Assembly (NCBI GenBank): GCA_900766135.1
Contig: CAAFUF010000001.1
Coordinates: 27,455-91,454, forward strand
DNA from: Paenibacillaceae bacterium
GTDB lineage: Bacteria; Bacillota; Bacilli; Paenibacillales; Paenibacillaceae
Direction of reading: 5' to 3'
DNA length: 64,000 nt
The position numbers and the translations under genes were made by a program. Positions within the stretch are counted from its first letter, which is position 1. Each line of letters begins with the position of its first letter. Positions 9,254 to 11,228 of this stretch are shown in pieces. Under the pieces are notes generated by a model. That model worked only from the letters and a program-made list of their open reading frames with translations, was not told the DNA's origin and ran no database searches.

Positions 9254-9281
9254 TTGTTTTTGTTTGAGGTTTCGTTATAAT
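9254..9281 (+). promoter_or_regulatory. Putative sigmaA promoter for the leader-rlmA transcript
   Basis: Perfect TATAAT at 9276-9281 with a weak TTGTTT -35 about 16 bp upstream. Confidence 0.55.
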
Positions 9282-9322
9282 CAAAAGGCATGATCAAACG
9301 AAGATAGGGAGGGTTAGGGAAA

Positions 9323-9367
9323 ATGGTGCATTACATCAGACTGCGTCATTCCGCTTTGAACAAGTAA
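9323..9367 (+). CDS. 14-aa regulatory leader peptide MVHYIRLRHSALNK (ErmDL-like, RLR macrolide-arrest motif)
   Basis: ATG GTG CAT TAC ATC AGA CTG CGT CAT TCC GCT TTG AAC AAG TAA with GGAGGG RBS at 9308-13; 7/14 identities to ErmDL (MTHSMRLRFPTLNQ, recalled) with the same length and RLR position. Confidence 0.8.
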   Translation: MVHYIRLRHSALNK

Positions 9368-9464
9368 TTTCATATGTTCAAAGGCTCTGTTCGCCTGAAC
9401 AGGGTAAACGGGATCAGTCTGCCCATTTTCATAACTCTTCATCGGATATATTCAATAGGTGAAT

Positions 9465-9497
9465 GAAGGAAGGCGGCCGTGCTGTCTTTCTTTTTTT
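9465..9497 (+). terminator. Attenuator terminator in the rlmA leader
   Basis: GAAGGAAGGCGGC-cgt-GCTGTCTTTCTTT stem (with G-U pairs) ending in a T tract, about 100 nt before the rlmA start. Confidence 0.7.
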
Positions 9498-9597
9498 GCG
9501 CCCATTAGGCCTTATTTAGGCATGCTTGTCCGGGCTTCTATGTTCATGGGCTTTCTCCCCCCTTTACTCTGTAAGGCAAAGGAAAGGAAGGGAAAGC

Positions 9598-10479
9598 ATG
9601 AATCAACCCATCAACGGCGCAGGACGCGCGAGAAACGATATATCCATCTTAAAATGCCCGGTATGCGGAGGGCGATTTGACGCGAACGGCCCGCAAAGCT
9701 TGACCTGCCCCCAAGGGCATGCGTTTGATATGGCGAAGCAAGGTTACTTCAACCTGACGATTCGTCCGGCTCATAGCCATTACGACAAGGAGCTCTTCGC
9801 CGCTAGGCGGAGTATCATTACGGAAAGCCGCTTATACGCCCCTCTGCACGAAACGATCGCAAGGATGATCGCGAACCGAGCCGGCAACCCTGCTTCTGGC
9901 GGACTGGTCGTCGATATGGGCTGCGGGGAAGGCTCGCATTTGCAGAAAATTTTGCATGGGCTGGGTCCGTCGGGCTGGATTGGCCTGGGAGTCGATTTGT
10001 CCAAAGAAGGCATCCGTTTGGCTGCCCGACAGTATGCGGATGGACTTTGGGTCGTTTCGGATTTGGCCCATGCGCCGCTGCAGGACCAATCGGCTCAGGT
10101 GGTACTCAACCTGCTGTCCCCGGCCAATTATCGGGAGTTTAAGCGAATCCTTGCTCCGGAGGGCGTTCTCGTCAAAGTCGTTCCGGGTGCGGACTACTTG
10201 CGGGAGCTGCGGGAGACGTTGCACGGCGACAGCAACAAAAGGGATTACTCCAACGCCAACATCGTGACGTTGTTCCGCCAACATTTTTCTAAGATGGAAG
10301 TGGTGCATTTGAAGTACCGGCAGTGGTTAGATACCGAGGCCTTGCGTGATTTAGTGCGCATGAGCCCGCTCGCCTGGTCCGCGGAGCAGGCGAAAATCGC
10401 GGCGTTTACGGATCGGGATGGCGCGGAAATCACCGTGGACGTGGATCTGTTGTTGGGTCGGAAGGACTCGCTTAGCTAG
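9598..10479 (+). CDS. rlmA: 23S rRNA (guanine-N1)-methyltransferase RlmA family; probably RlmA(II)/TlrB-like (G748)
   Basis: N-terminal Zn-binding CPVC..C..GHAFDMAKQGYFNL; SAM motif VVDMGCGEG, GVDLSK; SPANYREFKRIL. Start moved to ATG 9598 behind an AGGAAGGGAAAG RBS. Confidence 0.88.
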   Translation: MNQPINGAGRARNDISILKCPVCGGRFDANGPQSLTCPQGHAFDMAKQGYFNLTIRPAHSHYDKELFAARRSIITESRLYAPLHETIARMIANRAGNPASGGLVVDMGCGEGSHLQKILHGLGPSGWIGLGVDLSKEGIRLAARQYADGLWVVSDLAHAPLQDQSAQVVLNLLSPANYREFKRILAPEGVLVKVVPGADYLRELRETLHGDSNKRDYSNANIVTLFRQHFSKMEVVHLKYRQWLDTEALRDLVRMSPLAWSAEQAKIAAFTDRDGAEITVDVDLLLGRKDSLS

Positions 10480-10544
10480 ACGGCAAATCCGCATTGCGCT
10501 ATCATTTACTAGACTAAAGATCTTGTACGGATGGGAGCAGGCAT

Positions 10545-11228
10545 ATGATCGGGACATTGGTGAACACTGCGGCGATTTTGGCGGGCAGCGTGCTGGGAAG
10601 CATTTTCAAGAAAGGGCTGAAGGAAAAGTATCAGACCGCGCTGTTTACCGCGATCGGCTTGGCCGCTACGCTGCTGGGGATTAACGCCGCGGTGGCGCAT
10701 ATGAAGGACAGCTCGTTTCCCGTGCTGTTCATTATCAGCTTGGCGGCGGGGAGTCTGATCGGGACGGCGCTGGATATCGACGGTAGTTTCCAGAGGCTGG
10801 TCGGGCGTTTCTCCACCTCGAATCTAGGTCAGGGGTTGTCCACGGGAATTCTGCTGTTTTGCATCGGGACCCTGTCGATCCTGGGACCGATCGAAAGCGC
10901 AATTCACGGAAATCACACCTATCTGTACATGAACGCAACCCTGGATCTTGTGACCTCCATGGTGTTGGCCTCCTCGTATGGCATCGGGATTGCACTAACT
11001 GCCGTCGTGCTCTTTCTTTGGCAGGGAGCGATTTATATGAGCGCCGACTATCTGGCGCCTTTTCTGACGGCCCCGTTGCTGACCGAAATCTCCATCGTCG
11101 GCGGCGTGCTGATTGCAAGCTCGGGGTTATCGATTTTGAAAATCATCGAGGCGAAAACCTTGAACATGCTGCCGGCGTTGTTAGTGCCGGTGATCTGGTT
11201 TTTGTTGAAGGGGTTATTGGGTTATTGA
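10545..11228 (+). CDS. DUF554 family membrane protein (YdfK/YqgA-like)
   Basis: MIGTLVNTAAILAGS, LLFCIGTLSILGPIES, NMLPALL motifs; multiple TM segments. Confidence 0.88.
   Translation: MIGTLVNTAAILAGSVLGSIFKKGLKEKYQTALFTAIGLAATLLGINAAVAHMKDSSFPVLFIISLAAGSLIGTALDIDGSFQRLVGRFSTSNLGQGLSTGILLFCIGTLSILGPIESAIHGNHTYLYMNATLDLVTSMVLASSYGIGIALTAVVLFLWQGAIYMSADYLAPFLTAPLLTEISIVGGVLIASSGLSILKIIEAKTLNMLPALLVPVIWFLLKGLLGY

Follow-up and report, generated by a model that had tools for sequence, protein, structure and literature searches.

In a 64,000-nucleotide stretch of a Paenibacillaceae bacterium genome (GenBank assembly GCA_900766135.1, contig CAAFUF010000001.1, positions 27,455 to 91,454; here called the window and numbered from its first letter), a gene for an RlmA-family 23S rRNA guanine-N1 methyltransferase is preceded by a leader of about 310 nt. 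All features described here lie on the forward strand. The gene, rlmA, occupies 9598..10479 and encodes 293 aa, and the product is probably RlmA(II)/TlrB-like. A putative -10 box, TATAAT, lies at 9276..9281 with a weak -35 element, which would place the start of the leader transcript near 9288; the promoter scan of the window missed this box, and TATAAT is found at a comparable position in related loci (L003-L007, L013 and L016). The leader contains a 14-codon upstream open reading frame (uORF), MVHYIRLRHSALNK, at 9323..9367 with its ATG at 9323, and, as a preliminary description made from the sequence had said, this frame has its own ribosome-binding site (RBS), GGGAGGG at 9307..9313. The encoded peptide carries Tyr4 and the motif R6-L7-R8 (9338-9346). 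It is likely, in our judgement, that this leader is a ribosome-dependent attenuator of the ermD/ermK family that controls an RlmA(II)-like 23S methyltransferase, and a macrolide-stalled ribosome probably turns resistance on where it is otherwise off.

The leader aligns from its RBS to the rlmA start codon with the ermD leader of Bacillus licheniformis, with 183 of 288 positions identical (uORF 31/45, core 82/108, terminator T1 27/35, anti-Shine-Dalgarno (anti-SD) element 16/24). The ermD locus was reached by a plasmid search using the leader (25 records), and the uORF there is the published ErmDL, MTHSMRLRFPTLNQ. The earlier suggestion of an erm-type leader driving an rlmA gene therefore reflects true homology, since the alignment spans the whole leader. 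Both leaders have a 14-codon reading frame, R6-L7-R8, the hairpins P2 and P3, T1 and the anti-SD element, and the window shares the alternative pairing of T1 with an antiterminator and the hairpin over the RBS of the controlled gene, although switching in silico needs an extended 5' block. They differ in the N-terminus of the peptide (V-H-Y-I in the window, T-H-S-M in ErmDL) and in the cargo, which is rlmA and not an Erm A2058 methyltransferase, so the window has a homologous leader and not an ermD locus. They also differ in that ermK is described as carrying two terminators (PMC4335068), whereas the second, T2 (a hairpin plus U run in ermD), is deleted in the window, leaving a 24-column gap inside the RBS hairpin.

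Among 3239 short open reading frames led by a Shine-Dalgarno (SD) sequence in the genome, RLRxxxLN occurs once, in this uORF, while an early R/K-x-R/K is present in 328 and RLR in 15. All six Leu codons are in use for Leu7 among 122 homologous leaders, and synonymous changes at both Leu7 and Arg8 occur across the family, the motif itself being required by the parser. In the 'LN' tail the Leu codon is TTG in 117 of 117 cases; because TTG is fixed at the RNA level, the tail reflects hairpin P2 and not peptide function. The proposed likeness to ErmDL is thus upheld for RLR and for the homologous leader, and its 'LN' part is better explained by the RNA. We also noticed uORFs that lack R-x-R while the RNA module is intact, before mph in L031 and before erm in L086; inducibility may be altered or lost there.

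To describe the drug-free state, we folded 9285-9610, which gave -112.7 kcal/mol (z = -3.85; none of 100 shuffles was equally stable). The long stem P1 (9308..9440; pairs 9308-16:9432-40, 9319-26:9423-30, 9339-43:9415-19 and 9348-53:9409-14) is part of the minimum-energy fold and buries the leader RBS, the start codon, the partner strand of the RLR codons and the ACGGG toehold; in this OFF fold the leader RBS (SD1) is bound by 9432-9440 with a probability of 0.99 when no block is applied. P1 encloses hairpin P2 (CTTTGAACA/TGTTCAAAG, 9354..9383, paired 9354-62:9375-83), inside which the uORF stop codon lies, and hairpin P3 (9384..9405), whose 3' arm plus ACGGG makes up a long-range ON strand. 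Downstream lie the intrinsic terminator T1 (9465..9497), with a 13-bp stem containing G-U pairs (9465-77:9481-93) and a run of seven U that reaches 9497, and the hairpin that sequesters the rlmA RBS (9550..9597; 9550-55:9592-97 plus 9561-64:9584-87), with the anti-SD at 9550-9572 and the SD sequence of rlmA (SD2) at about 9585-9593. A simple terminator scan did not list T1. The inner hairpin, the terminator and the RBS hairpin of the preliminary description were all recovered, as were its pairs 9319-26:9423-30 and 9337-43:9415-21 and its alternative pairs CTTCAT 9437-42 with ATGAAG 9463-68 and CTGCC 9419-23 with GGCGG 9472-76 (one G-U). Absent from that account were P1 hiding the leader's own RBS, P3, and the long-range ON helix described below.

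Across 46 homologues, 88.5% of the cells of the OFF structure are paired, a value reached by none of 500 shuffles, and two-sided changes occur in 16 of 51 pairs, a count limited by the columns within the search pattern being invariant by construction. The SD1 pairing is kept in 91% of cells, and the P3 pair 9390:9399 is changed on both sides in 13 of the 46 rows. The RNAalifold consensus of these homologues recovers P2, P3 and T1, and P1 is not recovered in it. Behind T1, TTATTT at 9512..9517 matches the NusG pause motif TTNTTT given in PMC11602163. A TTNTTT stands behind the core in 19 of 37 rows, and a strict one behind T1 in 12 of the 27 aligned rows that have sequence at that point; of these two the window retains the second alone, the post-core one being gone, and the hairpin that precedes the motif in many homologues is missing here.

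In the mechanism we propose, a ribosome in cells without drug would translate the 14 codons and depart, P1 would close over the leader RBS, the antiterminator strand and the ACGGG toehold, and T1 would fold so that transcription ends at about 9497. Any read-through RNA would be silenced again through the RBS hairpin at 9550-9597. These OFF structures are predicted by folding, and their use in the cell is presumed. When a macrolide occupies the exit tunnel, the ribosome would arrest with Leu7 in the P site, as judged from ErmDL, for which arrest at R6-L7-R8 is described (PMC8298421), and P1 would be prevented. As the polymerase advances, 9419-9432 would seize the 5' arm of T1 and permit read-through, and 9399-9412 would seize the anti-SD at 9559-9572 before the RBS hairpin closes, allowing rlmA to be translated. 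RlmA would then methylate helix 35, probably at G748, and by analogy with B. subtilis tlrB this may both protect against tylosin-type drugs and shut off induction.

The antiterminator strand (9415..9443) can pair as 9419-23:9472-76 and 9426-32:9463-69, or alternatively as 9437-42:9463-68. In a transcript ending at 9478, the antiterminator forms with a probability of 0.71 when 9318-9356 is blocked and 0.99 when 9305-9356 is blocked, compared with 0.000 unblocked and 0.008 with a ribosome at the stop codon. The preliminary description had a ribosome stalled at RLR free 9415-9443: the pairings exist, and in folding the footprint alone is insufficient, the RBS region having to be blocked too. Likewise, the check it proposed, folding with the leader blocked, gains the antiterminator only with the extended 5' block, and finished T1 wins at equilibrium. 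The inner antiterminator helix shows two-sided changes in five of six pairs across the 46 homologues. A second ON helix joins 9399..9412 to 9559-9572 (duplex -18.6 kcal/mol). In a transcript to 9575 its probability is 0.997 with 9305-9356 blocked and 0.000 unblocked, and it drops to 0.04 once the RBS hairpin is complete. This helix is 87.1% paired in 37 rows with two-sided changes in 6 of 19 pairs (3 of 500 shuffles score as high; slid controls are 55% or less paired), and in 68 of 86 loci its duplex is stronger than each of five crude shuffles. In the ermD fold it appears only with the ribosome footprint blocked, and in the family it reaches the 5' arm of T2, where it would also act as an antiterminator. 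The second layer of control that had been proposed is thus correct in its RBS hairpin; what would open the hairpin had been left unnamed, and the conserved pairing 9399-9412:9559-9572 can supply an opener.

Several of these results count against the mechanism as set out above, as does the invariance built into the search pattern. A footprint of 9329-9356 alone gives neither ON helix (0.000-0.001), and the RBS region that it leaves free re-pairs with 9423-9440; the model itself may be at its limit here, and we count the result as an unexplained weakness. Whatever block is applied, finished T1 prevails (0.99 or more). The outer pairs of the antiterminator are kept at 96-99% and show no two-sided change, and when both ON helices are forced on the full leader the RBS is unpaired at 0.37-0.39 compared with 0.34. 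As a benchmark, the ermD leader behaves alike: its T1 antiterminator also forms only with the RBS blocked, and T1 dominates similarly. Because the antiterminator needs the 5' block co-transcriptionally and the known-inducible ermD folds in the same way, we regard the switch as kinetic and not as an equilibrium one.

The prevalence of T1 in all equilibrium folds would also suit a mainly translational version of the same sensor, in which T1 is leaky and largely unregulated and the drug-dependent step is the long-range helix opening the rlmA RBS in read-through RNA. The ermD benchmark points the same way, in that a narrow footprint there allows the long-range helix and not the T1 antiterminator, and so do L014 and L050, which lack T1 or its 5' arm and keep the anti-SD/T2 element. 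We nevertheless judge it unlikely, given that the antiterminator strand is 96-99% paired with the T1 5' arm across the homologues, that its inner helix changes on both sides in most of its pairs, and that ermK is described as transcriptionally attenuated (PMC4335068; PMC5418344). At the long-leader rlmA loci L014, L050 and L017, T1 or its 5' arm is apparently deleted and the anti-SD/T2 element is retained; loss can thus strike either terminator, depending on the lineage.

The module is found well beyond rlmA. A pattern scan of genomes gave at least 120 matches, of which 80 with flanks were analysed. Among the matches listed, these 80 precede msr ABC-F genes (27), hflXr (16), rlmA (14), mph (7), erm (6) and mef-like MFS genes (3), so that macrolide-resistance cargo accounts for 73 of 80, with 26 representatives named by NCBIfam; the remaining seven comprise one broken locus, one chance match before clpP and five without a callable reading frame. 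A covariance model built from 46 copies matched 34 of 151 genomes at class level, 46 of 53 at genus level and 9 of 151 at phylum level, and 29 of the best 30 class loci precede the same six gene classes. In metagenomes, 56 of 80 flanked loci were leader-positive, of which 46 have cargo of the six classes, nine have no callable gene and one has another gene. Named plasmid cargo includes ermD (B. licheniformis), mef(F)-msr(G) (Macrococcoides canis, B. cereus), mph (Priestia) and mphN (Exiguobacterium), and on Priestia plasmids the leader adjoins rlmA. No seventh cargo class was found in genomes, metagenomes, viral contigs or the phylum-wide model search. Apparent other cargo was dismissed, L093 and L383 being chance matches without a leader, L065 (the same as L163) being broken, L198 being a partial module and others lacking a callable gene. 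In L065/L163 the leader is intact and is followed by an unrelated short reading frame with no T1; L198 has no uORF and stands before a lipoprotein-like gene. Rfam did not match the window (one irrelevant hit, E = 0.08), nor 12 family loci.

Since all assignable cargo falls into six macrolide-resistance classes, the distribution also bears on whether the leader is a broad sensor of ribosome stress, induced by any drug that keeps ribosomes within the first few codons (e.g. lincosamides), with RLR not decisive. The Listeria monocytogenes rli80-hflXr leader, which likewise encodes a 14-aa RLR peptide and uses attenuation, responds to lincomycin in addition to erythromycin (PMC6310831), and our folding, which needs the RBS/start region blocked, is fitted better by an early-stalled ribosome than by one at codon 7. 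The cargo argues against this explanation, as does the synonymous variation at Leu7 and Arg8, the motif being parser-required, and we consider it quite improbable. As described in PMC6310831, rli80 also resembles the window in its logic of anti-anti-terminator, antiterminator and terminator. The cargo differs from that of the window, hflXr being itself a common cargo of the module (16 of 80 loci among the matches listed), and the likeness is drawn from the published description.

The window's own genome holds a second, diverged copy (G000:C1:99197-99349, L390) with the leader MLYIKFRFTTLRG and a K-F-R motif before an hflXr-like gene, and similar copies precede hflX in 15 of 29 genus loci examined. 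In the same genome, G000:C34:82119-82028 on the minus strand weakly matches (E = 0.006) the ACGGGA..GTCTG part plus terminator, before an ABC-F gene about 32% identical to Msr; this site is possibly another antibiotic-responsive leader.

The rlmA product is intact, with Pfam Zn_ribbon_RlmA (PF21302) above cut-off and S-adenosylmethionine-dependent methyltransferase domains (PF13649/PF08241), and it matches E. coli RlmA(I) (PDB 1P91) at E = 4e-25. Its nearest named relatives are in Paenibacillus mellifer, P. phocaensis, P. barengoltzii and P. macerans. The RlmA(II)/TlrB-type label given earlier holds as to the family. Its G748 specificity is presumed from the Gram-positive host, RlmA of Gram-positive bacteria being described as G748-type (PMC6851288); it draws no help from NCBIfam, whose G748 models score 122-132 bits and whose G745 model scores 131, all far below cut-off. 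Helix 35 of 23S rRNA was not found in the assembly using short motifs.

To see how the leader is distributed among rlmA orthologues, we searched 301 family genomes at the protein level and inspected the best 30 loci. A long leader is present at 16, the window's own included, which agrees with the expectation that the uORF type is conserved upstream of orthologues; 12 have a short leader ending in R-x-R/K-stop, and two have none. One of the 12 is exactly the B. subtilis TlrBL, MIIQFIRYR. The RlmA proteins with a long leader, 28 in all, group together in a single clade that also takes in a few leaderless members, with SH-aLRT support of 93 (29 of 61 rows, quick tree), 98 (31 of 87 rows) and 93 (32 of 86 rows). 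The trees exclude duplicates and proteins shorter than 200 aa (L160, L226, L259), and the 86-row analysis also excludes the long-branch L234. L234, L241 and L243, labelled leaderless in the 87-row tree, carry TlrB-like peptides and stand outside the clade. Long and short leaders are separated by one change on the tree. Short-type leaders gave no match to the core profile at E < 1e-4, and they lie outside the long-leader rlmA clade. Which type replaced the other is a weak point in this history: short-leader rows as one clade are not rejected (approximately unbiased test, p = 0.47), and E. coli-rooted trees are open at the base. The short peptide MIHYIRLR* (L019, L026, L028, L030) is identical to residues 1-8 of the long-type MIHYIRLRSLTLNK (L016), and GGTTTATTTG is present in both leader types.

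An msr gene lies directly 3' of rlmA in 8 of the 13 long-leader loci checked, whereas a close msr is lacking from the window's genome (best 32-42% identity). From these two observations, it is most likely that rlmA acquired its leader within a leader-rlmA-msr cassette and that this lineage later lost msr and T2. The loss of T2 and of the hairpin before TTATTT, together with the three to four genes of this rlmA clade for which no leader was detected, could also mean that the leader is a vestige of an msr or erm cassette that no longer switches, with rlmA silent or constitutively low. Yet six relatives have almost the same uORF and core even though their RlmA proteins are just 67-95% identical, and the altered RBS region of the lineage is still complemented by its partner strand in the fold. 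We think a vestige very improbable.

After rlmA comes a gene for a DUF554 membrane protein (10477-11228), with a weak promoter-like site at 10477-10505, and the order OYE oxidoreductase, divergent arsR-type regulator, leader-rlmA and DUF554 is largely retained in L004-L007. For the RlmA orthologues of the genus members G072, G250, G195, G244 and G155, the match is split in two with a gap between, all in a single open frame, a pattern suggestive of an insertion following the Zn ribbon. RlmA-like methyltransferase genes of 36% identity, annotated 'putative RNA methyltransferase', occur on many 2.5-3 kb plasmids of Staphylococcus and Mammaliicoccus. Contigs from RNA runs (one metatranscriptome contig ending at 9574, with rlmA pieces at lower depth) were set aside because contigs cannot rank expression or show ends, and they may derive from DNA.

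The tlrB (yxjB) gene of B. subtilis is the closest precedent for the cargo. Its leader, as described in PMC6851288, shares with the window an RlmA cargo, an R-x-R peptide (MIIQFIRYR), a terminator and an RBS-sequestering hairpin, and both peptides have an aromatic residue two positions before the motif. The tlrB leader differs in a 9-aa peptide that ends at the motif, a length of 177 nt and a mechanism, as that source gives it, in which the ribosome blocks the base of the terminator and no antiterminator is identified. The window, with 14 aa, an internal motif and about 310 nt, is not of the tlrB type, and where tlrB has a NusG-dependent pause it has TTATTT at 9512-9517 without the preceding hairpin of the family. 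A survey of 180 leaders described in PMC6851288 demanded a C-terminal motif.

Which macrolide acts on the leader may depend on residue 4. Erythromycin arrest on ErmDL requires Ser, Ala or Gly at this position, and telithromycin arrest requires RLR, according to Beckert et al. (PMC8298421); TlrBL, whose residue at the corresponding position is Phe, stalls with tylosin and not with erythromycin, as described in PMC6851288. Because the window has Tyr4, which does not satisfy the ErmDL requirement for erythromycin arrest, tylosin-type or ketolide (RLR-dependent) inducers seem more likely than erythromycin. We surveyed residue 4 in 123 distinct leaders, L004 being read by hand. An aromatic residue stands there in 27 of 29 rlmA leaders, 1 of 34 msr, 5 of 18 erm, 4 of 13 mph, 0 of 3 mef and 11 of 26 hflX leaders, and a small one in 30 of 34 msr, 13 of 18 erm, 9 of 13 mph and all 3 mef leaders. 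The two non-aromatic rlmA exceptions are rlmA-msr operons, and the short B. subtilis TlrB leader has the same aromatic residue as the rlmA-borne long leaders. We treat the association between residue 4 and cargo as a lead and not a result, as only one independent pair is free of kinship, the leader RNA tree does not resolve, and the five aromatic erm leaders run against it. A wider proposal would be that the ermD leader is a portable macrolide-sensing cassette of about 300 nt, placed before at least six unrelated resistance genes of Bacilli, plasmids included, with a peptide tuned to its cargo, so that the rlmA copies, with their aromatic residue, ignore erythromycin and answer the tylosin-type drugs against which RlmA(II) protects. 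This is possible as a whole, and we lean somewhat against it.

Related RLR-type peptides, Mef(E)L, Msr(A)L and Msr(C)L, precede other macrolide-resistance genes (PMC4335068, Table 3), and the sharing of peptide classes across genes is already known from that source. For the mef(E) and erm(K) leaders, its account reports no discernible RNA homology, whereas here the RNA architecture itself is common to six gene classes. In a literature search that covered few subscription journals, we came across no account of an rlmA gene with an ermD-type leader, nor of an RNA module shared by six classes; the long-range helices may already have been described for ermK/ermD (Kwak 1991; Hue and Bechhofer 1992; Choi 1997). 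The class of mechanism is long known, and the finding is in that respect a moderate surprise.

The leader in the window would represent a second, independent route to inducible RlmA, unlike that of B. subtilis, and the classic ermD attenuator belongs to a widespread family of RNAs that has no Rfam entry and is a marker of six macrolide-resistance classes. Natural peptides with S4, A4, F4 and Y4 on near-identical RNA make it directly testable which N-terminal residues set the macrolide that stalls the ribosome, and the module should be useful for annotating inducible resistance in Bacilli.

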